NCBI GenBank assembly: GCA_035534015.1
Contig: DATLSP010000161.1
Coordinates: forward strand, 1 to 34,517
Source of the DNA: Nitrolancea sp.
GTDB lineage: Bacteria > Chloroflexota > Chloroflexia > Thermomicrobiales > Thermomicrobiaceae
DNA length: 34,517 bases
Reading direction: 5' to 3'
Part shown: positions 9,910 to 21,893 of the stretch, in pieces
Layout: each line of letters opens with the position of its first letter
Position numbering within the stretch: position 1 is the first letter of the stretch
Translations under genes and position numbers: made by a program
The notes under the pieces: generated by a model
What the model saw: the letters and a program-made list of their open reading frames with translations, nothing else
Database searches by the model: none
What the model was told of the DNA's origin: nothing

Positions 9910-12198
9910 TTACGGATGTCGGTAGATTTTCACGTTGCCAGACTGAAATGCGAGCGGCCAGCCAATTTGGCCCAGCTCCTGCAGTCCGACGGCTGAGTAA
10001 GGAGCGCCACCGTCACATTGCGAACCATAGCCATTCTGCTCGATGGAGCCATCGATAATATACGTGATGTCGTACGACTTCAACAAGTTTTGTGCCTCAG
10101 GTGAAGTTGGGTTGTTATAGATCGTCGCGACGTCTGCTTTTCGTTGAGCGATTTCGCTCGATATGGACGGGTCACCAAGGCGCCACTGGTACTCGTGAAA
10201 CTGCCATCCGAGCGGCGTTGGCAGCCCGGTGGCCATTGAGAAGAGATTGTCCGGCATCACCCCATCCTCGCCGTAGGAGCATCCCGGAGATTCCAGAATA
10301 TGATCGGTCGACGCGGCGCGTGCGTTCAGCCAGTCGATTGCCGCAATCTCGTCAGGCGCGCCTTGACGAAGATAGGTAAGTCCGTCGATTCCGGAGAAGT
10401 GTGAGAATCCGTTCGTCCACCGGTAGGCTGAGATCGGCGGATAAAGCGCGGCTCCAAGGGTAATGAACAATATTGGTGCGACAGATGCGACCGCGATCAG
10501 TCGACTTGAATGATTGCGAATCCACACGATTCCAAGTGGGAGCCCTACCGCGCAACTAATCGCGAACAGAGCCCAGGACTGAAAATAGAGCTTGAAAACG
10601 GTGTTCATACGATTAGCAAACGCATCTTCGAGAAAAACCAGCTCGGTGATCGATAGGAGCAAGAACGCCACCCCAAAGAGGCTGACGAGATAGCGCGTCG
10701 CCGGGCAAACCTTTCCCACGACGATCACTGCGAAGATGACCGCGAGCGGCCCCATAAACCAGAAGAGGCCGGGGAATCGGGTAAAGACCGATGCGAGAAA
10801 CAACCCTGCCGCTACCGCAGCGACCGATCTCGGTTTGGTCCCACCCGCTCTGATGACTGGAAGCGCGATTGGTACGAGGAAGAGCAGGGCGATCAGGAGG
10901 AAGAGACCGTGGACGGTGAATATTTCCCGGGTCGAACTCCTGGGCCAGGTTACGATCCCAATCGTCTCGACTAGTTTGCCCAGGATCGGGAGCGTTTTGA
11001 TTGACTCAGGAATATCGTTTCCTTGAAGGCCAACTGCCGGAGTGTAGTTAAGTTCGAATGGGAGTACGGTCACGATCGCTGACGCAAAGAGAACGCCGAG
11101 CGGAAGCAATTTTTGCGACCAGCGCAGACCGATCGTCGCGATGAGGATGCCGACGACCGCGAAGAGCAGCGCAGGCGGCATATCCCACGAGTTTGTCGCA
11201 TAGAGTGCAGCGGCCAGGACACCCGCTATGGCTGCGCCAGAGAGCAGCGACCTCGTATTGTGTCCAGCCAAGACAATTGCCAACCCGACTGCAATGCTGG
11301 AGATAAACATAGGGTACGCGAGAACATGCGGGTGCAGGTCTCCAAGCACGAAGCTGAACGCGGGAAACTCGTTGATCGTCTGCGCTCCAGGTCCGTCGAC
11401 GATCACGCGCGATGCGTTCCAGCCGACACCTTCCCACCAGCCGGCGTGCAGCGTGCGCCATGGATGTTCGATGAACTTAAGCGGCGTATACAGATTGCCG
11501 ATGCCGACCAGGAAGATACCGGCGAGCACGCCAGTAAGCGTGAGCATTTTCCGCGAACGGTTACCCAGACTTCGCATCAGGTTGACCGCCGTACCGGCCG
11601 CGCCAACGGTCGCCGTGGCAAAGAGGGTGGCGAGCGCGAGGTTGAAGGCGTGGCTCGGCAAGATGTGGGCGATACGTGCCGGAAGCGACATCAAGAGGTA
11701 ACCGAGATAGTAGTAGTTTATCGTGTGACCGAGGAACCAGGGATCAGCCGGAGGCAGCGAGCGGGTGTGTTCGATGCTGGTGAGAAAGGTCAGTTCCATC
11801 GGTTTTTCGGTGTGCTGGATGGCGGGGTTGAACGACCGGAACACGACATATCCCACGAAAAGCGCGAAGGTCACGAATTCGTACACGATTAGTTGAACGA
11901 TGTTCTCGCGTAAATAACGCGCGAGTTCACCGCCGCGCAATTCGTAAATCCAGGCTATGAGTCCGATTACCGCCGGAATTGTGATGATCAGCAGAGTCGT
12001 GTAGGGGATTGCTCCCACCGCACTTAGCCACCAGGGTACGAGCGCCGCAAGCAGCAGTCCGAGCGGTCGGACGATAGCGAGGCCGCGGTCGGGTAGGGCG
12101 GAAAGCCCTCGATAGATCAGCGGATACATGAGCCAGGCGAAGGCGCTCAGGGTGACATACCAACGCACAGACTCAAACGCGACCTGAGAGATCGTCAC
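9910..12198 (-). CDS. YYY-motif polytopic membrane protein (DUF2298 / Chlor_Arch_YYY-like), single-module form
   Basis: 762 aa and very hydrophobic. Motifs: 'HTEKPMELTF', 'ADPWFLGHTINYYYLGYLL' (YYY codons 11707-11715), 'INEFPAFSFVLGDLHPH', 'NSWDMP' and 'RMNTVFKLYF', plus a soluble C-terminal domain. The GTG start overlaps the upstream stop (GTGA at 12195-12198). Confidence 0.85.
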   Translation of the reverse strand: MTISQVAFESVRWYVTLSAFAWLMYPLIYRGLSALPDRGLAIVRPLGLLLAALVPWWLSAVGAIPYTTLLIITIPAVIGLIAWIYELRGGELARYLRENIVQLIVYEFVTFALFVGYVVFRSFNPAIQHTEKPMELTFLTSIEHTRSLPPADPWFLGHTINYYYLGYLLMSLPARIAHILPSHAFNLALATLFATATVGAAGTAVNLMRSLGNRSRKMLTLTGVLAGIFLVGIGNLYTPLKFIEHPWRTLHAGWWEGVGWNASRVIVDGPGAQTINEFPAFSFVLGDLHPHVLAYPMFISSIAVGLAIVLAGHNTRSLLSGAAIAGVLAAALYATNSWDMPPALLFAVVGILIATIGLRWSQKLLPLGVLFASAIVTVLPFELNYTPAVGLQGNDIPESIKTLPILGKLVETIGIVTWPRSSTREIFTVHGLFLLIALLFLVPIALPVIRAGGTKPRSVAAVAAGLFLASVFTRFPGLFWFMGPLAVIFAVIVVGKVCPATRYLVSLFGVAFLLLSITELVFLEDAFANRMNTVFKLYFQSWALFAISCAVGLPLGIVWIRNHSSRLIAVASVAPILFITLGAALYPPISAYRWTNGFSHFSGIDGLTYLRQGAPDEIAAIDWLNARAASTDHILESPGCSYGEDGVMPDNLFSMATGLPTPLGWQFHEYQWRLGDPSISSEIAQRKADVATIYNNPTSPEAQNLLKSYDITYIIDGSIEQNGYGSQCDGGAPYSAVGLQELGQIGWPLAFQSGNVKIYRHP

Positions 12199-15100
12199 GG
12201 GTTGACCTTGGCAGAGAGTTTCGGCGCAAGTCTGGGGAACGGGATCACTTCGTACACCGTCGTGTCTCCTGACTTGAAGGCGATGCGCAGATCGGTCCCG
12301 ACCATTGCGTCAAGCGTTGCCAGACCGGCCACGCTGGCATAGGGTTGGTCGCCCGCGAAGATGCCCGCGAACCCGGGGTCGGGTTCCCATTCGCGTTCGA
12401 CGTCACCGACGATGATGAAGCGGATTCCGTATTGATCAATGAGTGCGCGCTTCGTCGCGACATCGGTTGAATTGTAGAGCGTGTGCAAATCGACGAGCCG
12501 TTGATCGATCCCGGGCCAGTAGCGCTGTTGCCGTTCGTGGCTGTCCCAGCCCAACACGGAAGGGAGTCCGGTGCCCGAGGAAATCCTGGCGCCGTTGCCC
12601 CGATACGGGCCAATGCTCGCCTCGGCGATGATGCCGTTATCGGTGTCGTGGGTCCGTAGCCACTTAATCGCGGCGAGATCGCCGGTGAAGTCGATCTTCT
12701 GGCCGGAGGAGTTGAGAATCCACGATCCATTCATCCATGCTAGACCGTTGAGCGTCAACGTGCTGGGACTGCCCGGCATATGGTTCGCGAGGCGGGCCGG
12801 GGTGCCGGCGATCGGATAGATAAGTCCGGCGGCGATGAGCAGTGTGCTCGTAAGCAGCGCCACTCGGGCTGCGACGATGCGCGGTTTCATCGAGTCGAAT
12901 TCCGGCAGCACCGGTGGACGCGTTGGCTGACCCGCGATGATCCCCAGTGGTTGACGATCCATGGTGGTGGCAACGGTGTAGATGAGCCAGACGAGCGCCA
13001 TCGATGCCGCGAGCGCGAAGAGTGTCCAACCCTCCAGGAAGAACTTGAAGACCGTGTTCATGCGTTCCCAGGGTGATCCGGAAAGATCGTCGACGACATA
13101 GACCAGATCGGTGCCGAGCGTCACGCCTGACGCACTGGCAATCATGAGACCAAACAGGGCGAGCGGCCGTCGATCGGAGAACTGGAGCCAGATGAGGACT
13201 CCAAGGACGAGCGGCACGAGCAACACGGCGGCGGTAGGCCGAATCGGCATGAGAAGCCCGATCAATGCAGCAGCGATCGGGCTCAAATAGACAAGTGATT
13301 GCAGCCGGGAGTCTTCGCCGACCACGACGAGCATCATCAACGGTAGCGCGGCTCCGACGAATCCGGCGACGAGCGCGACGATGAGGACGTGGACCGGGCT
13401 GAGGTCGCGCGTGATCACCGAACAGACGAAACTCGCCGCAACCGCGGCAGCTCCAGCCAGCATACACGCGAGCAGATCATTGCTGTGCGGATTGAAGCGA
13501 CCGATCGCGAGCACGAATCCGGCCAGCGCCAGTATGCCGAGGAAAATGCCGAACTGGACCATATATTGCTCCGGTGCGGTGCCGTTCGTGGTGCGAGCGA
13601 TACCGGACACAAGCGCGACGAAGCGACTGAAGAATGGCCAGAAAAGCGTCCAAGTCATGCCACCGATCGCCAGCCAGATCCCGGCGGCGAGGGCAAACGG
13701 CTTAACGCGATAAGGCCGCCGGGTAATGGCCGTCGTCGCGAGTGCCGCGCCGACGAGCAAGAGTCCAAGCGGCATATCCCACGAATTCGTCACCACCATC
13801 GTACCGAGCACCAGCGCGGTGAGGACTGCCCATACGGCGACGTCTTTGACACAATGTAATCCGGAACGGATGCGTTCGTAGACGAGTGCGATCAGCAAGA
13901 CGGTGATCGGTAGGTCGATCGCGTGAGGGTGCAGATCGGCCCAGATCTGGGTGAAATAGGGAAATTCGGTGATGGTGTAGGTGACGACGCTACGGCTGCG
14001 CCAGAAGTCGAAGGACTGGCCAGTGCTGCTGATGACCTGAATAAAGCCATCGAGATTGCCGATGATCGAGTGCAGGAGCACGCCGCAACCCCCGGCGATC
14101 ACGACCCATTTGAGTCGTGTTGTGCGCAACAGGTCCGACCCGATCGTCGAGCTAAGGCTGAAGACGCCGGCAATCAGCATCGCGCTGACGGTCGCCATCC
14201 CGAGTTGAAAGCCGATTTCAGGCGGTATGCCGGTGAGCTTCCAGAGATAGGCGACGAGGTAGAAGCCGTAATAGTAGTAATTCATCGCGCCACCGGCGAA
14301 CCATGGGTCGTACGGAGGGAAGACGGCACTACGGCCGATGGCATTCATAAACGCCATCTCCATCGGCTTTTCGCCACCGAAATAGGTCTGCCAGAGATCA
14401 GGATTGATCGCCCTCATCGTCAGAAAAAACGCAAAGGCGCCGAAGAAAAATGCCTCAGAGATGAGGATCATGCGCCAGCGTCCTCGAACGATCGGCCACG
14501 CCTGGCGAAAACTCCGGTGAAAGCCGAGCCAAATCGCGGCGACGACAAGCCCAATCGGTAGTAAAAGATTCGGCATGCGAAAGTGGACCAACTGCAGACT
14601 GACTGCGATCCACACCGCATAGCCGGTGACGATCAAACCGAGAGTGCGCGACAGACCCCATCCAAGATCGCTGAAGCGCGCGAAGATAGCGAACGTCAAC
14701 GGTAAGGCAGCGAGCCCGAGAAGGATCAGCACCACGATCCAGACCGCCGTCGCGACCAGGCTGTAGTGTGTGATGGCAGACGACCAGCCGAGGTCGTTGG
14801 CGACGTCGCGCTGATCGACCGGTTGACTCAAGAGTAACGATGGGGACGACGCGTTGCGGGTTGGATCCCACGGTTGGGCGATCGCCGCCGCGAAGCGCTG
14901 CCGGAGTTGATCCGTGGAGAGCGCGGCGACCTTCTTGAAGATGCGCACGTGCGGGTGGTCGTAGACCGAGAAACTCTCGTCGGCGGTGTGATCATTGAAT
15001 GTCATGCCAAACAGCGACGGCTCGACGTTGGATTCGTAGACTTCCTGGAACCCAAGCTGTCCCGATTCAAGTAAGCGGTAATACTCCGAATCGACCGGAT

Positions 15101-16646
15101 AGCGCCAGGGTGACTTCGGAATAGACAACGACAGACGGTCGCTCGACAGAATGACATAGTCGGCTTGCTGCAGCGCGTTCACAATGTAACCGAACTCCTG
15201 TTCGTTCGGTCGATCAGCGTAGAGGTCCATCGTGATCTGCTTATAGTACGGAGTGGGGTATGGGTGACCCGCCAGGGCAATGGGTAATGAATCGTCCCAA
15301 TACTCGGCGGTAAGCGTCGCTCCAGCCGGTATGTTCTGGTAGATCCAGGCCGACGCAGCGATCCGCGTGTTTGTTTTGCCGTAGATCGACTCGAAGGCGA
15401 TCGACCAGCCGAGTGTGCCCGCGACGATGAGCGTGATACCAACAATGGGCGCGACGAAGCGGAACGACCAGGCGCGTTTTTGAGGCAGCAGCTGCAATAC
15501 GAACGCTACCGTCAAAATGACGAGCGCCGGAACGATCGGCTCCATGTAGCGCATGAATTTCGCTTCCGCAGTGGCGATGAGCGCGAAATACGGGACGATC
15601 CAGCTGAGCAGCAGCAACTCGACGAACGAGCGGGAGCGCCAGCGCCAGAGCATGAAGACCACCGCGGCAAGTGCCGGTATCCCGAGGAACGGTCCGAGCC
15701 CCCAGTGGACGAGGTTTCCGAGTTCATACCGTACAGGAATGTCGCCAACAAACTGCCGCGTAAACGGAACGTCAAACTTGCCGCTTACAATGCTCCACTG
15801 CAGTCGCGTGTCGCTGATAAACGCGGCCTGCTGCAGTAGCGCATATGGATCGAAGAGCGCGAACGTGGCCAGCGTGGCGACGCCCGCCGTGGCCAGATGC
15901 TTGACAACCGGATCGAGCATTTCCGGAATACCGCGCGATTTGAACGAAAATATCATCGTCAGAATGATCGGCACGACAAGTTCAACAACGCTGATCTTCG
16001 TCGCGAGCGCCATCGCGAATACGATTCCAGCGAGTGCGCTCCAGCGGTAGCCGGGTCGTTCATGAAAGCGCAGACAGGTGAGCAGCAGGGCAACGGTGAA
16101 GAATGTCACCCAGGTATCGGCGGTGAAGAAATGCGCCAACTGCACCATCATTACCGTGGTGGCCAGTAGCGTTCCGGTCAGCAAGGCGGCTATCCGCCCG
16201 TAGGCGCGGCGCGCGAACACCATTGCCAGGGCGACGGTAGCGACATCGAGCAGTTCGGTCAGATTTCGTCCGATCTCGCCGACGTGGTCATAGTTGTTGT
16301 AATTCGTCTGTTTCAGGGTGCCGACAACCCAGGCGATAAAGTCGGTCAGATAGAGCGGCAGACTGCCGTAGGCGTACGCTTGCGGTTTGCCGTCCGGGCC
16401 GTCGGAACGTGGGTTGAGCGGGCTATGCGCGGGATCGAGCAGCGCCCCCAGGTTGTTGATGCTCGGCGCGTGTATGCGCTCGGTCAACACCATGACGATG
16501 TTGCGTTCATCCGGTTGAAGATACCAGCCGTTGTCCCAGTTATGGCCATAGAGGCGCAAAAAGAGTGCGAGTGCCAGAATCGAAATTACGCCAAGGTAAA
16601 AGAGGAAGCGGCGCGACCGGTCGGTCTTCATGATAGATGGGATCAT
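12195..16646 (-). CDS. giant YYY-motif membrane protein: N-terminal GT-C/PMT_2-like module plus DUF2298 / Chlor_Arch_YYY-like module
   Basis: The tracked ORF runs to 16811 but would overlap the divergent GTPase gene. Plausible starts are ATG 16646 ('MIPSIMKTDRSRRFLFYLGVISILALALFL') or ATG 16631. C-terminal half motifs: 'GGEKPMEMAF', 'YDPWFAGGAMNYYYYGFYL' (14268-14279), 'ITEFPYFTQIWADLHPH', 'NSWDMP' and 'RMNTVFKFF'. N-terminal half: 'LQPDERNIVMV' and 'AYAYGSLPLYL', then the soluble domain 'YWDDSLP...YDHPHVRIFKK'. Confidence 0.85.
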   Translation of the reverse strand: MIPSIMKTDRSRRFLFYLGVISILALALFLRLYGHNWDNGWYLQPDERNIVMVLTERIHAPSINNLGALLDPAHSPLNPRSDGPDGKPQAYAYGSLPLYLTDFIAWVVGTLKQTNYNNYDHVGEIGRNLTELLDVATVALAMVFARRAYGRIAALLTGTLLATTVMMVQLAHFFTADTWVTFFTVALLLTCLRFHERPGYRWSALAGIVFAMALATKISVVELVVPIILTMIFSFKSRGIPEMLDPVVKHLATAGVATLATFALFDPYALLQQAAFISDTRLQWSIVSGKFDVPFTRQFVGDIPVRYELGNLVHWGLGPFLGIPALAAVVFMLWRWRSRSFVELLLLSWIVPYFALIATAEAKFMRYMEPIVPALVILTVAFVLQLLPQKRAWSFRFVAPIVGITLIVAGTLGWSIAFESIYGKTNTRIAASAWIYQNIPAGATLTAEYWDDSLPIALAGHPYPTPYYKQITMDLYADRPNEQEFGYIVNALQQADYVILSSDRLSLSIPKSPWRYPVDSEYYRLLESGQLGFQEVYESNVEPSLFGMTFNDHTADESFSVYDHPHVRIFKKVAALSTDQLRQRFAAAIAQPWDPTRNASSPSLLLSQPVDQRDVANDLGWSSAITHYSLVATAVWIVVLILLGLAALPLTFAIFARFSDLGWGLSRTLGLIVTGYAVWIAVSLQLVHFRMPNLLLPIGLVVAAIWLGFHRSFRQAWPIVRGRWRMILISEAFFFGAFAFFLTMRAINPDLWQTYFGGEKPMEMAFMNAIGRSAVFPPYDPWFAGGAMNYYYYGFYLVAYLWKLTGIPPEIGFQLGMATVSAMLIAGVFSLSSTIGSDLLRTTRLKWVVIAGGCGVLLHSIIGNLDGFIQVISSTGQSFDFWRSRSVVTYTITEFPYFTQIWADLHPHAIDLPITVLLIALVYERIRSGLHCVKDVAVWAVLTALVLGTMVVTNSWDMPLGLLLVGAALATTAITRRPYRVKPFALAAGIWLAIGGMTWTLFWPFFSRFVALVSGIARTTNGTAPEQYMVQFGIFLGILALAGFVLAIGRFNPHSNDLLACMLAGAAAVAASFVCSVITRDLSPVHVLIVALVAGFVGAALPLMMLVVVGEDSRLQSLVYLSPIAAALIGLLMPIRPTAAVLLVPLVLGVLIWLQFSDRRPLALFGLMIASASGVTLGTDLVYVVDDLSGSPWERMNTVFKFFLEGWTLFALAASMALVWLIYTVATTMDRQPLGIIAGQPTRPPVLPEFDSMKPRIVAARVALLTSTLLIAAGLIYPIAGTPARLANHMPGSPSTLTLNGLAWMNGSWILNSSGQKIDFTGDLAAIKWLRTHDTDNGIIAEASIGPYRGNGARISSGTGLPSVLGWDSHERQQRYWPGIDQRLVDLHTLYNSTDVATKRALIDQYGIRFIIVGDVEREWEPDPGFAGIFAGDQPYASVAGLATLDAMVGTDLRIAFKSGDTTVYEVIPFPRLAPKLSAKVNP

Positions 16647-16679
16647 AGCAATGTTGTCATGGTTAGGACAATCAGCCTG

Positions 16680-16709
16680 TTGACCTTCGCAAGGTGTGGG
16701 CCATATACT
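16680..16709 (+). promoter_or_regulatory. putative sigma70-type promoter of the small-GTPase gene
   Basis: TTGACC (16680-16685), N18, TATACT (16704-16709), 65 nt upstream of ATG 16774. The leader contains the hairpin GCTGCG-CGAA-CGCAGC (16736-16751). Confidence 0.4.
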
Positions 16710-16773
16710 CCAAAGGACCAGACGTTGTCGCGAAGGCTGCGCGAACGCAGCGTCGAGAAGCGGGGCCTGCTCC

Positions 16774-17277
16774 ATGAAAACGCTCAAAGTAATCGTCGGT
16801 GGCGAGGGCAACGTCGGTAAGACGTCTCTGATTCGTCAGTATGCCAAAGGGAAGTTTAGCGAAGCCCGGAACATCACGCTGGGCATCGACATAACGACGC
16901 AGGAGTTTCAGATCGACGGGGAGGCGGTTCGTCTCGCGATCTGGGATATCGAAGGGCAGGCCGGCAATCGGCCGAACTTCTACATCGGCGCGCAGGCGGC
17001 GATGTTGGTATACGACGGAACCGAGCCGTCCTCTTTGGAGGCGTTGATCGAGTGGCACAGTCGCTGCAGCCGTTATGCGGGCGACGCCCCAATCCTGGTG
17101 ATCGGCAATAAGATCGATCTCGGTCTAGCATTCCCTCCGCTGTGGGGACGAGTGTTCGCCAAGAACATCGGGGCAAAGCACGGTTTTCTCTCCGCCAAGA
17201 CGGGTGAAAACGTCATTCAGGCGTTCAGTATTCTGGCGAACCAAGCGGTCAATCACGCTAGCGCCGCACGCCGGTAG
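16774..17277 (+). CDS. Ras-superfamily (Rab/Ras-like) small GTPase
   Basis: 167 aa from ATG 16774; the tracked ORF from 16696 overlaps the promoter region. G1 'GGEGNVGKT', switch I 'NITLGID', G3 'WDIEGQ', G4 'GNKIDL', G5 'LSAKTGENV'. Confidence 0.85.
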   Translation: MKTLKVIVGGEGNVGKTSLIRQYAKGKFSEARNITLGIDITTQEFQIDGEAVRLAIWDIEGQAGNRPNFYIGAQAAMLVYDGTEPSSLEALIEWHSRCSRYAGDAPILVIGNKIDLGLAFPPLWGRVFAKNIGAKHGFLSAKTGENVIQAFSILANQAVNHASAARR

Positions 17278-17282
17278 TCCGG

Positions 17283-18248
17283 GTGCCGTTACGCATCGTT
17301 TTTTTCGGTTCTCCTCAGTTTGCGGTGCCGGCGCTTCAGGCGTTGGCGTCGAGCGACCAATTCTCAGTTAACCTGATCGTTACTCAGCCTGACCGTCCGG
17401 CGGGTCGGGGTCGTGAAATCGTCGAGCCACCAGTCAAATTAGCCGCCGCCGCGCTTGAGATCCCCGTCTGGCAACCGACGACATTGAGGTCAGACGAAGC
17501 GCTCCAACGATTGAGCGCCATCGACGCCGATCTGTTTATTGTCGTTGCCTACGGCGAGTTCTTCCAACGGGCCACCCTGGCTCTTCCACGATATGGGTGC
17601 CTCAACGTTCACCCGTCCTTACTGCCACGCTATCGGGGTTCGTCACCGATCCAAGCCGCGATCCTTAATGGTGATTCCGAAACCGGGACGTCGATCATCA
17701 AAATGGTGCGCAAGCTCGACGCTGGACCGATCCTGGCGCAACAGCGCTATGCACTCACGAGCAGCGAAACGGGCGGTTCACTCGCGGTCGAGCTCGCGAG
17801 GATCTCGGCGCAGATGTTGCCGAGCGTCGCCGCCGATTGGTGTTTCCAGAGGATTCAAGCGTTGCCGCAAGATGAGGACGAAGCGAGCTATACCCGTGAG
17901 TTGACCAAGGCGGACGGCGGCCTCGACTGGCATGAGACTGCGACGACGGTCGAGCGAAAAGTGAGGGCGTACTCCCCCTGGCCGACCGCATGGACCCGAA
18001 TCGGCGGTAGACGCCTGGTCATCGCCGAGTGCGCGGCCGAAGGGCGCAACTGGGCAATGTTGCCGGGGTCGGTCGTCGTCGAGCAGCGTGCAGTATTCGT
18101 TGCCTGCGGCGCAGGGTCTATACGCCTGCTGACGGTCCAACCTGAAGGCAAACGTGCGATGACCGCGAGCGACTGGATTCGCGGCCTCAGAAGTGTCGAG
18201 AATCTCCGTTTCGACGAACTTAGCCGCGAGCCGGAGTCGGCCGGATAA
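17283..18248 (+). CDS. fmt: methionyl-tRNA formyltransferase
   Basis: Motifs 'IVFFGSPQFAVPAL', 'VTQPDRPAGRGR' and 'NVHPSLLPRYRGSSPIQAAILNGD'. The GTG start lies 5 nt after the GTPase stop. Confidence 0.92.
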   Translation: MPLRIVFFGSPQFAVPALQALASSDQFSVNLIVTQPDRPAGRGREIVEPPVKLAAAALEIPVWQPTTLRSDEALQRLSAIDADLFIVVAYGEFFQRATLALPRYGCLNVHPSLLPRYRGSSPIQAAILNGDSETGTSIIKMVRKLDAGPILAQQRYALTSSETGGSLAVELARISAQMLPSVAADWCFQRIQALPQDEDEASYTRELTKADGGLDWHETATTVERKVRAYSPWPTAWTRIGGRRLVIAECAAEGRNWAMLPGSVVVEQRAVFVACGAGSIRLLTVQPEGKRAMTASDWIRGLRSVENLRFDELSREPESAG

Positions 18249-18307: not shown

Positions 18308-18691
18308 CTAACGCTTGGAGCGACTTTTCGCCGTGAACGTCTCGAACAGAACAGCGACGACGACGACGAAGGGTAACAACAGGGCGATCACCAGGATAAC
18401 GGTATCGAGAAGCATGTGCGGATGAACCCGGGTGATCTGGTCTCGTTGAAGCTTGGTGCGTAGCGAACTCCAACCGGTGCCGACCTTGCCGGCCCGCCAC
18501 GAGTACGCTCCGGTTACGACAATGACGAGGCAATTGGCGGTAATACCCAGGAAGATCAATCCCGGCGCCCAGCGCCCGAGTACGAGCATGATCAGCGTCA
18601 GCACCGCGCCTACGAACGCGATGATACTGAACTCGATCGTCGCGAAGCGTATGCCGTTGAGGTTGTTATGATCTCGAATCCGTTCGATCAT
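18308..18691 (-). CDS. hypothetical small membrane protein
   Basis: 127 aa with about 4 hydrophobic segments ('FATIEFSIIAFVGAVLTLIMLVL', 'GLIFLGITANCLVIVVTGAY', 'LLDTVILVIALLLPFVVVVAVLF') and a basic C-terminal tail. I recognise no family motif. Confidence 0.55.
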   Translation of the reverse strand: MIERIRDHNNLNGIRFATIEFSIIAFVGAVLTLIMLVLGRWAPGLIFLGITANCLVIVVTGAYSWRAGKVGTGWSSLRTKLQRDQITRVHPHMLLDTVILVIALLLPFVVVVAVLFETFTAKSRSKR

Positions 18692-19000
18692 CGTGCGTGC
18701 CGGTTAGCACCGACAGCCGGCAGCGAAGCGGCCGAATCGCGAAATCTGTATTGCGCATAAGTGCAGTTATCCGCAATCAAGAGGTTGCACTGCCCTGTCC
18801 GCGATCGGCGATGAAAAAAGCGTCCATGGTTTCCGATCGCATGATCCTCCGTACCAGCAATGATTCGACCAATGTCCAGCGATGTATCGGGTTGACTGGG
18901 CGCATATTCTCGTCGGACTCTGACTGCCTGTTGCGCGGGCTGCAACAGCGTGGTTATCGACGGTTGCGGGCTCCGCTAAGCCGATTCGGAAAACTCCGAA

Positions 19001-19264
19001 TTACAAGTCAGTGTTCGCTGCTTGCGCGATCTCGATCCTCGACGTCGCTTCCCTTCGCTCCGCGATGTTTGCCCGGGCAACCGCCAGCATACGTTCGCGG
19101 TTCCGTTGCGCGTCCTCTCGCAGTGCGCGGTGCTCGGTTTCTTCGGCATACCGCGGTCGTTGCCGACGCTCCCGGGTGAACCGCACCAGTGATCTTCTCA
19201 CACACGCCGGTGCTTGATCGATTTCGCTCCCAGCGCAATCCTCGATTTTCCGATTTCGAGACAT
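19001..19264 (-). CDS. candidate small highly charged protein (very uncertain)
   Basis: 87 aa from ATG 19264, with AAGGG about 8 nt upstream. 'RFTRERRQRPRYAEETEHRALREDAQRNRERMLAVARANIAERREATSRIEIAQ' looks helical and charged. GC3 is about 63% by my count, similar to neighbouring genes. The hairpin ATTCGGA-AAAC-TCCGAAT (18984-19001) abuts the stop. No family is recognised. Confidence 0.25.
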   Translation of the reverse strand: MSRNRKIEDCAGSEIDQAPACVRRSLVRFTRERRQRPRYAEETEHRALREDAQRNRERMLAVARANIAERREATSRIEIAQAANTDL

Positions 19265-19616
19265 TTTTCGCGCCCTTATCGAACGATCGTACCGCGCAAG
19301 CGGTCTCACGGCAAGCGACGATCGCTTTGACGAGCGGAATGCGCCGCCGGTTTTCTACGCTAGATGTGCAAACCCCGGCTGGATCTGATTGACGCTCTAT
19401 TCGGGTTCGACGAACTGGTTGCGCCGGACAGTGTTCCGCGCAGACTTGCCGGGCGGGAGTTCCATCCGTGGCACGCCGAAGCCGCTTCTTGATGAGTGCG
19501 CCAACCATCGCCAACGCGGACGCCGTCGATTGTGGCAGGCGTCTTTAGCTCAAGCGTTACGGCGTTGTATGGCGATTATCCAGCGGCGCCGCTCACTGCC
19601 ACATTCGCGCTATGCA

Positions 19617-20513
19617 CTATTCGATGAGCCGTCCCGTAATCACGATTCGTTGATCGTATGCGCCTTTGGCTTGATCGAAGGTCCCGTTGCACGTGATCAA
19701 GGTAATCGTTGGCGTTCCGGTGGAAGCAACGATCTGACTGGCGTCGGCCGTCGCCGAATACGATTCGATGGTCGCGACACGGTATCGAAATGACGTGCCG
19801 TTACCATCGTCGACATCGATTTCGTCACCTGGCTGCAATTGGTCGAGACGCCAAAAGACTGCGGGCCCCACTCCGGCATAATCGAGATGTCCCGCGAACA
19901 CGGCGTTACCCAACGTTCCAGGCTGAGCAGAAAAGTCATACCAGGCGACAACCGACGGCGAGTCCGGTGCCTGCATCACCCCGCCATCGACCGTCTTTAC
20001 TTCCACCGGCGCGTTGACACCAATTGCCGGGATCAGCAGTCGCCTGAGCATCGCCTGAGGCTCGCTCGCGGCGGTCGGAGTATTTTGGCCCGTCGATGTA
20101 GCCACGGTACTTGACGGCGCCGGTAGTTGGGTTGGAGTTTGGGCCGAAGCCACGGTTTGTGCCGGCTGCTCGGTTGGCGCTGGTTCCCCGGTTGGAATGG
20201 GATCCCTGGTTGGTGTGGGTGCGAAGACAACGGTGGGAACCGTTACGTTTGGAGCGACAGCCTGGGGTGTCGCGAGACGTGTAGTTGGAGAGTTGTCGAT
20301 TTGCGGTTGAATGGTTTCGAGTCTGGTCGACGCGCCGGTTGGAGAGGCGATTGCCAGAGAGGACGACGTTCGACCGTTCACTGTTTTATGTGACGGGATC
20401 GTGAAATTTTGAAATGCCAGGAGACAGAGAGCGAATCCAGCGAGTATCACAAACACTACCGAGCGACGGGCCAGCATCTTACGCCTCATCCTCGGTTCGG
20501 GCGGACGAACCAT
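19617..20513 (-). CDS. sortase, class F-like
   Basis: The catalytic domain runs 'LLIPAIGVNAPV...VAWYDFSAQPGTLGNAVFAGHLDY...TLITCNGTFDQAKGAYDQRIVITGRL', giving the His / TLxTC Cys / Arg triad. It has an N-terminal TM anchor and a Pro/Thr-rich linker. The start is uncertain: in-frame ATGs occur at 20651, 20585, 20513, 20489 and 20477. ATG 20477 has GAGG 6 nt upstream; 20513 begins the basic-TM segment. Confidence 0.8.
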   Translation of the reverse strand: MVRPPEPRMRRKMLARRSVVFVILAGFALCLLAFQNFTIPSHKTVNGRTSSSLAIASPTGASTRLETIQPQIDNSPTTRLATPQAVAPNVTVPTVVFAPTPTRDPIPTGEPAPTEQPAQTVASAQTPTQLPAPSSTVATSTGQNTPTAASEPQAMLRRLLIPAIGVNAPVEVKTVDGGVMQAPDSPSVVAWYDFSAQPGTLGNAVFAGHLDYAGVGPAVFWRLDQLQPGDEIDVDDGNGTSFRYRVATIESYSATADASQIVASTGTPTITLITCNGTFDQAKGAYDQRIVITGRLIE

Positions 20514-20585
20514 AATTGTCTCGAATACTACCGTGCGACCTGCCGGTACCCTACGCGTCGTCTTCGGTTCGATTAGACGAACCAT
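20442..20585 (-). repeat. 72-bp imperfect in-frame tandem duplication at the 5' end of the sortase gene
   Basis: Copies 20585-20514 and 20513-20442 (read on the minus strand) are identical at 52/72 positions with no gaps, by my manual count. Both begin ATGGTTCGTC and carry a GGTTCG-N6-CGAACC hairpin. The stems are identical and the loops differ (TCTAAT vs TCCGCC). Confidence 0.7.
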
Positions 20586-20684
20586 TGCTGTTCTCCAGTC
20601 GGATAGAGCTGCCCCCGCTACGGGAACAGCCCAATTCCGATCTTCGTCCATGCCGGGTCCTGGTTGGACTGCCGGCTGAAGTCG

Positions 20685-21893
20685 CTAGCGGCGGTATCGC
20701 TTCATCGCGACGAATCCGACGCCGGTGAACAGCAGCGCCAAAGCGGCCATGAGCGCGAAGCGGGATTCTGACGAGGCTCGGGAATTGTCATTCGCGACCA
20801 ATCCAACCGAACCGGTGTTCGGGAAGCTGATAGTCGTCGCCTGTGCAGTCGCGCCTGGCGTTGGCGTCCCCGCAGTGTCGTTCCCCGCCACAGTCGTTCC
20901 GCCATTATTCGTCGACGGCGTTGTTGTCGTTCCCCCACTCGTCGGTGTACTCGTCGCATTACCGGTAGGAGTGGCCTCTGTGCCGCCAGGTGCAACCGGT
21001 GTTCCACTGGAGCCGCCGGTCGGAGGCGTCCCGCCCGCTACTTCCGTCGGTGTTGCGGCCGGCGTCGTTCCCGGTGTCGTGACCGGAGTTGTGGCTGGCG
21101 TCGTTCCCGGTGTCGTGACCGGAGTTGTGGCTGGTGTTGTGACCGGCGTAGTGGTCGGAGTTTCTGGTGCCGCGATGCACCCCGCAATGGTGATGTTGTT
21201 GGTATCCATCGTGACGGCGCCGGTTTGCGCGAGAGCTCGGCCAATGACGCCCGCCCCGGTATTTAGGGTGATGCTCGCAAGCGCGAGAATGTTCCCGGAG
21301 AACGCGGTCGTCGTGCCGAGCGTAGCGGAACTACCGATCTTCCAATAGACGTTGCAGGCTGAACCGCCGTTGATCACGTTAACCGAAGAGTTACTCGCGG
21401 TAGTGAGCGTCGTCTCGATCTGGAAGACGAAGACGGCGCCAGCGTCGCCCTGAGCATCGAGCGTGAGGGCTCCCGTCAACTGGGCCGACGATGAAAAGCA
21501 GTAGACGCCCGGGAGGAGCGTCATCCCACCCAAGTCTTGACCTGTTAAATCATGATCACATGCCTGTGCGCCTAGCGCGTTGTACGCCGTGGTGACGTCA
21601 TTCTGTGCTTGAAGTGCAACCGCATCGGCGCTATGTATGACTCCACCGGTAACGATCCCTGGCGGAAATCCGGAGATTGCGGTCCCTGGGTCGACACCCA
21701 AGCTTCCATAGACAGTGGACGATCCAGTGTTGGTGACGGTGGAGCCGGCCAAAACCGCAAAGTTCTGCGCTGTACCGAGGGATGACGCAGTTGCCGCCTC
21801 CCCTCCCATCGGGAAGGCATTGGCAAAAAGCACCGCACCAATCGCGACGGTTACTAATGCCATCCGGTTGGTCCATCGACTGACTTTGAACAA
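20685..21893 (-). CDS. secreted DUF3494 (ice-binding-like beta-solenoid) surface protein with Thr/Pro linker and C-terminal sorting signal
   Basis: The TTG start at 21893 lies 7 nt after GGAG; an alternative is ATG 21863. Signal peptide: 'MALVTVAIGAVLFANAFPMGGEAATA'. The DUF3494 signature is 'LGTAQNFAVLAGSTVTNTGSSTVYGSLGVDPGTAISGFPPGIVTGG'. A TTP-rich repeat linker precedes the C-terminal 'FPNTG', a TM segment and 'KRYRR'. Confidence 0.85.
   Translation of the reverse strand: MFKVSRWTNRMALVTVAIGAVLFANAFPMGGEAATASSLGTAQNFAVLAGSTVTNTGSSTVYGSLGVDPGTAISGFPPGIVTGGVIHSADAVALQAQNDVTTAYNALGAQACDHDLTGQDLGGMTLLPGVYCFSSSAQLTGALTLDAQGDAGAVFVFQIETTLTTASNSSVNVINGGSACNVYWKIGSSATLGTTTAFSGNILALASITLNTGAGVIGRALAQTGAVTMDTNNITIAGCIAAPETPTTTPVTTPATTPVTTPGTTPATTPVTTPGTTPAATPTEVAGGTPPTGGSSGTPVAPGGTEATPTGNATSTPTSGGTTTTPSTNNGGTTVAGNDTAGTPTPGATAQATTISFPNTGSVGLVANDNSRASSESRFALMAALALLFTGVGFVAMKRYRR
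20688..20825 (-). other. candidate cell-wall sorting signal (FPNTG, 17-aa spacer, hydrophobic segment, KRYRR tail)
   Basis: The last 46 codons read 'FPNTGSVGLVANDNSRASSESRFALMAALALLFTGVGFVAMKRYRR'. The FPNTG codons are at 20811-20825. Confidence 0.6.
21061..21132. repeat. perfect 2 x 36-bp tandem repeat inside the DUF3494 gene
   Basis: GGCGTCGTTCCCGGTGTCGTGACCGGAGTTGTGGCT occurs at 21061-21096 and again at 21097-21132, with degenerate flanking copies. It encodes 'ATTPVTTPGTTP' twice. Confidence 0.95.

Follow-up and report, generated by a model that had tools for sequence, protein, structure and literature searches.

We analysed a 34,517-nucleotide contig of Nitrolancea sp. (GenBank assembly GCA_035534015.1, contig DATLSP010000161.1, positions 1 to 34,517; hereafter the window) and identified within it a gene for a 167-amino-acid Rab/Ras-like small GTPase of the Rup type (Ras superfamily GTPases of unknown function in prokaryotes; PMC4316618). 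The gene, referred to here as rup, lies immediately upstream of fmt, which encodes methionyl-tRNA formyltransferase, and is divergent from two genes for membrane proteins with DUF2298/Chlor_Arch_YYY domains (the YYY genes). Taken together, the data are probably best explained by a soluble Rup switch that leads a rup-fmt operon and whose targets lie elsewhere rather than in the adjacent YYY proteins.

The window encodes a Ras-superfamily GTPase

The open reading frame (ORF) extends from the ATG at 16774 to the TAG at 17275-17277, and its start codon is fixed by the M[KR]TLKV motif found at the N-terminus of all homologues. A first-pass annotation made from the sequence had recognised five G boxes of the Ras/Rab pattern in this ORF, and all five are present (Table 1, with residue conservation scored over 24 homologues). 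The Pfam Ras profile (PF00071) matches over positions 1-160 of 162 with 106.7 bits (cut-off 21.6, E=1.1e-30), and in a PDB sequence search all 60 of the 60 best matches were to Rab or Ypt (E-values from 8.5e-23 to 3.5e-18), which bears out the assignment as a Rab/Ras-like small GTPase. Among NCBIfam models solely the generic small_GTP family (TIGR00231) is matched, at 65 bits against a cut-off of 42.5, while among other Pfam profiles Roc scores 82.6 bits, below Ras, and Arf is weak. Alignments to Rab21 and Rab23 place a three-residue deletion in switch II directly after DxxGQ.

An AlphaFold2 model built from 24 homologues has the Ras-like alpha/beta fold, with a predicted local distance difference test score of 88.6 and a predicted template modelling (TM) score of 0.87, and low confidence is confined to switch I residues 30-33. 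Foldseek searches with this model returned nearly all Rabs, headed by Rab7, Rab3A, Rab23 and Rab1, at TM scores of 0.80-0.88 and 27-34 % identity. By profile, motif and fold the protein is a member of the Ras superfamily, far beyond what chance would allow.

The protein is a lone G domain without KH or other accessory domains. Its single cysteine is residue 98 and its C-terminus reads ...NHASAARR, so that, as previously noted, the 167-residue sequence has no C-terminal lipidation or prenylation motif; nor does it contain a membrane anchor, an amphipathic extension or any other lipidation site. It matches the Roc profile but is not a Roc-COR (ROCO) protein, since the sequence stops after the G domain at 167 amino acids without a COR domain. 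An MglA-type GTPase is ruled out, in line with the first-pass annotation, by the aspartate retained in G3 (DIEGQ) and by the lack of a Roadblock (MglB-like) gene among the window ORFs scanned. That scan covered 32 ORFs, comprising most of those of at least 150 amino acids together with one of 126 and leaving out the 60-133-amino-acid ORFs of intergenic gaps, and it gave no Pfam hit to Roadblock/LC7 or to Pep_deformylase; the called genes of six related loci (L049-L054) likewise contained no Roadblock hit.

Membership of the Rup family and phylogenetic placement

A Rup is a prokaryotic small GTPase of up to 240 amino acids that falls with the eukaryotic Ras superfamily and not with MglA, and that is uncoupled from MglB/Roadblock genes (PMC4316618). 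With 167 amino acids, DxxGQ at G3 and no coupled MglB/Roadblock gene, the window GTPase fits this definition. In their 2014 census of the Ras superfamily in prokaryotes, Wuichet & Søgaard-Andersen (PMC4316618) list in Table S2 a 167-amino-acid protein, Sthe_1175, as 'Rup Unc' and without conserved neighbours ('Rup>'). A Sphaerobacter thermophilus protein in our set (P0010) has the same length, occupies the same locus and is 79 % identical to the window GTPase; judging from the species, the length and its being the sole Rup listed for that genome, it is very probably Sthe_1175, and the latter hence an orthologue. The G motifs of Rups resemble the eukaryotic ones, with the catalytic glutamine missing from Group 1 Rups (PMC4316618), and the retention of Gln62 therefore fits the 'unclassified' label rather than Group 1. 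Rups are the prokaryotic proteins nearest to eukaryotic Ras, Rab, Rho and Ran (PMC4316618, PMC4915359), and at the time of the 2014 survey no Rup had yet been studied by experiment (PMC4316618). The family is thus already known and this orthologue group is both catalogued and automatically annotated, the named orthologues from Nitrolancea, Sphaerobacter and Thermomicrobiaceae carrying the NCBI label 'Rab family GTPase'; the novelty attached to the gene by the first-pass annotation was overstated.

All of the nearest homologues, at 62-96 % identity, belong to Thermomicrobiales, namely Nitrolancea, Sphaerobacter, Thermomicrobiaceae, Thermorudis and Thermalbibacter. An exhaustive HMMER search of 1.84 billion representative sequences returned only 17 at E<=1e-30, and identity steps down from at least 54 % inside the clade to 47 % in the next cluster, which stems from a Chloroflexota metagenome-assembled genome (MAG). 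Further relatives, placed like that cluster by nearest-relative identities and source names, are metagenomic prokaryotic 'small GTP-binding proteins' with 40-44 % identity and a 43 %-identical cluster named 'Rab family GTPase' from Asgard archaea. The next bacterial relatives found in genomes are Anaerolineae proteins in which a response-regulator receiver domain (REC) is fused to a Ras domain, with 35-38 % identity in the GTPase domain. From these sequence comparisons the gene reads as a prokaryotic Rup that is vertically inherited within Thermomicrobiales.

A probable, tightly packed operon of the GTPase and fmt

The product of the second cistron passes the Fmt equivalog model TIGR00460 (286.7 bits against a cut-off of 201.5) and contains the Pfam domains Formyl_trans_N and Formyl_trans_C. 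ArnA and ArnT form a pair of formyltransferase and PMT_2-type protein, and we therefore considered whether the product of this gene might formylate sugars on behalf of the YYY protein with its PMT_2/ArnT-like domain; this candidate was rejected, TIGR00460 being passed while ArnA scored 161 against 777 and other sugar models fell far under their cut-offs. In the window lineage fmt is unusually fast-evolving, its product being 63 % identical to that of the related locus L001 (1786-2766), with substitutions spread along the whole protein.

The stop codon of the GTPase gene is separated by five nucleotides from the GTG of fmt (TAG-TCCGG-GTG), exactly as first described. Over about 40-45 Thermomicrobiales loci the gap between GTPase stop and fmt start ranges from -20 to +17 nucleotides and is usually 3-6 nucleotides or a four-nucleotide overlap (ATGA/TTGA/GTGA). 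Predicted Shine-Dalgarno (SD) pairing across 44 loci is weaker for fmt (mean -4.0 kcal/mol) than for the GTPase (mean -6.3 kcal/mol), and the fmt SD is stronger where no GTPase stands in front of it (-8.2 kcal/mol in Thermomicrobium and -5.9 kcal/mol in N. hollandica). A hairpin scan against a shuffled control identified no credible terminator between the two genes: hairpins with a T-run numbered 2 against 2.2 expected, and the lone candidate, at 17282-17297, has five pairs and lies inside the start of fmt (the IVFFG codons). The tight gaps, the weaker fmt SD and the lack of a credible terminator bear out the proposal that the two genes are linked in expression, and they are almost certainly co-transcribed and translationally coupled. 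The absence of def from the window was also confirmed, none of its motifs (EGC[LW]S, HExDH, GxGxAAxQ) occurring in any of the six frames of the 34.5 kb.

Conservation of the fmt and YYY linkages across Thermomicrobiales

To follow both linkages, 48 genomic loci with relatives of the GTPase were fetched, and more by exact-protein look-up, and the neighbours seen in the window were located in them by tblastn. Such a comparison had been suggested in the first-pass annotation, and both linkages proved to be conserved, that with fmt in about 45 loci and that with YYY in about 38. Wherever the GTPase is at least 62 % identical and the locus runs on far enough downstream, fmt directly follows it, and the divergent YYY pair stands upstream of GTPases whose identity to that of the window runs from 96 % down to 66 %.

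Certain members of the order depart from this arrangement. Thermomicrobium sp. 4228-Ro has the arrangement YYY<-YYY<-|79 bp|->fmt->nfi without a GTPase, and no remnant of one was detected by tblastn in this locus (L052). This agrees with the census, in which Thermomicrobium roseum is given under MglA only and no Rup is listed for it (PMC4316618 Table S2). The GTPase is present in Thermorudis, the sister genus of Thermomicrobium. In Nitrolancea hollandica an unrelated gene of 433-434 amino acids occupies the GTPase slot (L055 5593-6897; L056 5593-6894); it has faint DUF2142 and DUF6050 hits only, probably encodes a membrane protein and is followed by a 103-nucleotide gap to fmt. Genome-wide absence of the GTPase is documented by the Table S2 listing for T. 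roseum alone, that in N. hollandica being an absence at this locus. Conversely, a sister clade (L039-L042) has the order fumarylacetoacetate hydrolase (FAH), GTPase, fmt and nfi, as in L042, with no YYY genes upstream. A conserved divergent partner in L041 and L042 was considered and rejected, as the minus-strand ORFs there are antisense shadows of the plus-strand FAH gene. The MAG STL-CHL24 (L042 and L044) has two GTPase paralogues, one in the FAH-GTPase-fmt-nfi operon of L042 and a second, 59 % identical to the window GTPase, whose neighbours encode an HpcH aldolase and an FAD-linked oxidase and which has no fmt close by.

In a neighbour-joining tree rooted with Anaerolineae the GTPases group by conserved gene context across the order, the FAH-GTPase-fmt clade being sister to the whole YYY-linked clade. 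In both clades many lineages have nfi, the gene for endonuclease V, after fmt (among them Sphaerobacter and Thermorudis, Thermomicrobium and N. hollandica, and the loci L035-L037, L040 and L042), but the window's own clade does not. Since Thermomicrobium and N. hollandica keep YYY beside fmt without the GTPase while L039-L042 keep GTPase-fmt without YYY, the YYY adjacency is a property of the fmt locus, independent of the GTPase, and the rup-fmt adjacency is older than that with YYY. The simplest history is an ancestral rup-fmt-nfi operon that is divergent from the YYY genes in one large clade, from which the GTPase was cleanly lost at least once (in Thermomicrobium) and was lost from, or replaced at, the N. 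hollandica locus, nfi being lost downstream in the window lineage. Both linkages sit in an order-wide syntenic backbone (YYY|fmt-nfi ...), so that being neighbours says little by itself about a shared function; we take it as weak evidence for a direct tie to YYY and as only moderate evidence for one to Fmt.

Exceptional constraint on a dispensable gene

Although dispensable and repeatedly lost, the GTPase is the most conserved gene at its locus. It shows 62-96 % identity across the order while its neighbours drift to 40-60 %, lies 16-33 percentage points above fmt in all 46 of the 46 loci compared and exceeds the YYY proteins in every locus tabulated. Relative to L001, identity is 96 % for the GTPase, 89 % for a spermine-synthase-like protein, 80 % for the large YYY protein and 63 % for Fmt. 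Beyond the nucleotide-binding residues, F28, A31, R32 and G37-T42 are invariant in switch I and the interswitch, as are W57-Q62, G64, R66, F69, G72 and Q74 in switch II and a family-specific W124-G125 after G4. Such near-invariant switch I and II surfaces would imply conserved regulators and effectors, and no such regulator or effector is encoded beside the GTPase.

Back-to-back promoter candidates in the divergent spacer

The spacer between the GTPase and the YYY genes had been described as a 127-bp control region with a near-consensus promoter. The divergent orientation and the promoter (TTGACC-N18-TATACT) stand; the length does not. The annotated ATG of the large YYY gene at 16646 falls inside a -10-like hexamer on the minus strand (TATGAT, 16647-16642), and the start codon conserved across loci is the ATG at 16631, which more probably is the true start and would give a spacer of 142 bp. 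If the minus-strand promoter in this stretch (16629-16671) is real, the YYY mRNA would be near-leaderless, with a leader of about 4 nucleotides.

On the plus strand the TATACT -10 element is present in 16 of 17 aligned loci, with five of its six columns invariant, and a TTGAC-type -35 element in most of them. The hexamer pairs of both strands are kept across the 17 loci amid variable intervening sequence, and this pattern fits genuine back-to-back promoters of predicted function. The 79-bp YYY|fmt spacer of Thermomicrobium is without the TTGACC/TATACT pair.

A proposed soluble switch and its alternatives

We propose that the GTPase is a catalytically complete, soluble, Ras-type GTP/GDP switch, as predicted from its sequence, and that it probably cycles like eukaryotic Ras and Rab, given the retention of Gly12, Thr35, Asp58, Gly61, Gln62, NKxD and SAK. 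It would be made constitutively as the first cistron of a rup-fmt (ancestrally rup-fmt-nfi) operon, from a sigma-70-type promoter placed back to back with that of the YYY (GT-C-like/DUF2298) genes. Ribosomes finishing the GTPase would then reinitiate on fmt, whose own ribosome-binding site is weak, so that synthesis of Fmt would be tied to translation of the GTPase. The GTPase itself would act on partners encoded elsewhere in the genome, and its operon position would mainly set its expression, and that of Fmt via coupling, rather than mark its target. Several considerations weigh against this proposal. That rup-fmt outlasted a rearrangement on its upstream side may reflect a real functional tie to Fmt, to which the proposal gives little weight, and the conserved back-to-back placement of the promoters could permit joint regulation with YYY. 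It also draws on inferred promoters and translational coupling, and on predicted transcription, GTP binding and GTP hydrolysis, all of them read from sequence.

We regard as rather unlikely a functional circuit, reflected in the order-wide coupled rup-fmt operon back to back with YYY, in which a Rab-like switch would link translation initiation (Fmt) or glycosylation of the envelope (YYY) to the guanine-nucleotide state of the cell. One alternative to our proposal, close to the switch for the neighbouring membrane machine that the first-pass annotation had hypothesised, would make the GTPase a dedicated regulator of the YYY (PMT_2/DUF2298, GT-C-like) proteins, steering how the envelope is glycosylated or assembled and sharing their regulation by way of the divergent promoter region. 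The layout conserved in about 38 loci down to 66 % GTPase identity and the conserved promoter hexamers would suit such a role, as would the putative membrane protein with its faint DUF2142 hit in the N. hollandica slot, which would be at home in an envelope-related neighbourhood. Comparative genomics nevertheless offers this switch no support: Thermomicrobium keeps both YYY genes divergent from fmt without the GTPase, with T. roseum having no Rup in the census (PMC4316618), L039-L042 keep GTPase-fmt with no adjacent YYY, and the GTPase has nothing by which to attach itself to a membrane. We consider this role unlikely.

A role with Fmt in translation initiation, for instance a nucleotide-dependent modulation of the formylation or hand-over of initiator tRNA with coupling enforcing co-production, seems to us marginally less probable still. 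rup-fmt is the oldest and tightest of the linkages, occurs in both major clades and survived the replacement of its upstream neighbour, and its overlapping or 3-6-nucleotide junctions, together with the weak SD of fmt, speak for coupled synthesis. Against this, Fmt works without the GTPase in Thermomicrobium, at the N. hollandica locus and in all other bacteria, and no fmt link was seen in the nearest relatives outside the clade. Selection against parting an essential gene from its only promoter explains the persistence of the pair without a functional tie, such adjacency being expected where an essential gene relies on the promoter and the ribosome flow of the gene ahead of it, and the much faster evolution of fmt than of the GTPase relative to L001 gives no sign of co-constraint.

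Recent horizontal acquisition of a eukaryotic Rab is very improbable. Eukaryotic Rabs give the best PDB sequence matches and the best fold matches, at 27-34 % identity where the folds are aligned, but the closer relatives are prokaryotic (Chloroflexota at 47 %, metagenomic sequences at 40-44 % and Asgard at 43 %). The gene tree, moreover, follows an order-wide gene context, the region has an unremarkable G+C content (0.575-0.59, with 0.583 in the window as a whole), the prenylation motif is missing and switch II is three residues shorter than in Rabs. It is scarcely credible, finally, that a ribosome-associated TRAFAC GTPase with a housekeeping role (Era, Der, Obg or EngB) has been taken for Ras-like, a possibility already discounted in the first-pass annotation, for its one point of support is a weak match to the housekeeping-GTPase model MMR_HSR1 (E=0.0022) of 18.5 bits, under the cut-off of 21.9 and set against 106.7 bits for Ras, while no NCBIfam equivalog for any of the four is matched, the protein is a single 167-amino-acid domain and certain members of the order lack the gene.

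A soluble Rup with targets elsewhere thus remains our preferred account, and the clade offers a tractable entry to Rup function owing to its extreme conservation, full Ras catalytic set and simple conserved operon. New in the present analysis are the order-wide rup-fmt(-nfi) operon with its predicted tight coupling, kept across most of Thermomicrobiales, the conserved pair of putative promoters placed back to back, the degree to which the GTPase is conserved, which is exceptional, and its natural losses; our literature search found no later study of this GTPase clade after the 2014 survey and nothing relevant on a link between Ras-like GTPases and fmt. S. thermophilus, a cultivated carrier, can be compared with relatives that amount to natural 'knock-outs', namely Thermomicrobium and, as far as this locus goes, N. 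hollandica. Were the link to fmt or YYY functional, it would give the first role for any Rup protein; if not, this would be an ordinary case of a gene riding in the operon of an essential gene. For small-GTPase specialists the gene is no surprise, and it is a useful lead for a first characterisation of a Rup, S. thermophilus being cultivable.

Neighbouring genes and other features of the window

The larger YYY protein carries an N-terminal PMT_2 (GT-C glycosyltransferase) domain according to Pfam. The second YYY gene overlaps its stop codon by 4 nucleotides and is conserved downstream of it in related loci; a search of the literature found no functional study of DUF2298/Chlor_Arch_YYY proteins. 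In the place of nfi the window has a small membrane-protein ORF of 127 amino acids, an unexplained gap, a sortase gene (19617-20651, minus strand) and a gene for an Ice_binding-domain protein (20685-21893, minus strand), followed by the spermine-synthase-like gene. The gap, 926 bp between the membrane-protein ORF and the sortase gene (18691-19617), holds ORFs of 160 and 168 amino acids without a Pfam hit and has an ordinary G+C content of 0.59. No Rfam or tRNA match was obtained there or anywhere else in the window. A defence system was considered and rejected, as PADLOC gave merely a negligible P-loop hit.

Table 1 Features of the rup-fmt locus and its surroundings, in window coordinates unless a related locus is named
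Feature	Position	Strand	Basis
rup-type Rab/Ras-like small GTPase gene, 167 amino acids and TAG stop	16774..17277	+	Pfam Ras, PDB sequence matches, AlphaFold2 model
G1/P-loop GGEGNVGKT, residues 9-17	16798..16824	+	G9, G10, E11, G12, N13, V14, G15, K16 and T17 invariant in 24 homologues
Switch I NITLGID, residues 33-39, with Thr35	16870..16890	+	T35 at least 90 % conserved, G37-T42 invariant; aligns to T-[LI]G of Rab21/Rab23
G3/start of switch II WDIEGQ, residues 57-62 (Asp58, Gly61, catalytic Gln62)	16942..16959	+	W57-Q62 invariant
G4 GNKIDL (NKxD), residues 111-116	17104..17121	+	N112, K113, D115 and L116 invariant
G5 SAKTGENV (SAK), residues 140-147	17191..17214	+	S140 and A141 invariant; K142 at least 90 % conserved
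Predicted sigma-70-like promoter of the GTPase-fmt operon, TTGACC-N18-TATACT	16680..16709	+	Consensus scan, 10 of 12 matches
Putative promoter of the YYY genes with a TG extension, TTGTCC-N18-TATGAT	16642..16671	-	Scan; GGACAA and ATCATA blocks conserved in alignment
Predicted coupling junction: TAG stop, 5 nucleotides (TCCGG), GTG start of fmt	17275..17285	+	Sequence; gap size over related loci
fmt, methionyl-tRNA formyltransferase, 321 amino acids, second cistron	17283..18248	+	TIGR00460; Formyl_trans_N and Formyl_trans_C
Large YYY membrane protein (PMT_2 and DUF2298/Chlor_Arch_YYY), divergent neighbour	12195..16646, start probably 16631	-	Pfam; TIGR03662, 448 bits
Second YYY membrane protein (DUF2298/Chlor_Arch_YYY)	9910..12198	-	TIGR03662, 445 bits
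Position of nfi, examples	Window 18308-21893 (no nfi); L049 8489-9163; L052 7950-8684		

Comparison with known systems

The usual bacterial arrangement is def-fmt. In this canonical operon, as here, fmt stands downstream in a tightly packed unit; the upstream gene there encodes peptide deformylase, whereas here it encodes a Ras-like GTPase and def is absent from the 34.5-kb window.

Eukaryotic Rabs (Rab7, Rab21, Rab23 and Rab1) are the best matches of the window GTPase in sequence (E ~1e-22) as well as in fold, and the two share the P-loop, switch-I threonine, DxxGQ, NKxD and SAK. Compared with the RabF consensus motifs, reportedly those given in 2000 by Pereira-Leal and Seabra, the GTPase matches F1 at 2 of 5 positions, F2 at 3 of 5, F4 at 3 of 5 and F5 at 5 of 6 (LGIDI, RLAIW, FYIGA and LVYDGT, respectively). 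Rabs, however, have RabF3 in switch II, a region lost from the GTPase in the three-residue deletion, and a hypervariable C-terminal tail with a cysteine prenylation motif, of which it has neither. The GTPase also sits in a bacterial operon and has prokaryotic sequences as its closest relatives. It is Rab-like in sequence and fold but, with the RabF3 region and the prenylation tail missing, it is no Rab.

MglA of Myxococcus and Thermus is, like the window GTPase, a prokaryotic single-domain Ras-like switch. According to PMC3000849 and PMC4316618, it has threonine in place of the G3 aspartate (TxxGQ) and an adjacent Roadblock-fold GTPase-activating protein, MglB, whereas the window GTPase has DIEGQ. 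Thermomicrobiales have a separate MglA-MglB locus (Sthe_1565, trd_0862; PMC4316618 Table S2). The Anaerolineae REC-Ras fusions differ from the single-domain window GTPase in their N-terminal receiver domain and length of about 315 amino acids and in having no fmt or YYY linkage. They were located at L045 5566-6510, L046 5590-6498 and L047 78-1034 and 2161-3120, L047 thus apparently holding two copies about 1.1 kb apart; Pfam confirmed both domains for L045 and for the second L047 copy.

Within the Rup family, Group 1 proteins lack the catalytic G3 glutamine that is present and invariant in the window GTPase (Gln62), and they belong to a four-gene signalling cluster (coiled-coil protein, OmpA-domain protein, and a GGDEF/EAL protein or histidine kinase), whereas the neighbours of the GTPase at its loci are YYY, fmt and nfi. 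Sthe_1175 and the window GTPase are alike in being single-domain proteins of 167 amino acids with eukaryote-like G1-G5 motifs, aspartate and glutamine in G3, and no MglB. The census gave Sthe_1175 no conserved neighbours (PMC4316618), whereas the present analysis places this group of GTPases at the head of an order-wide rup-fmt(-nfi) operon with divergent YYY genes.

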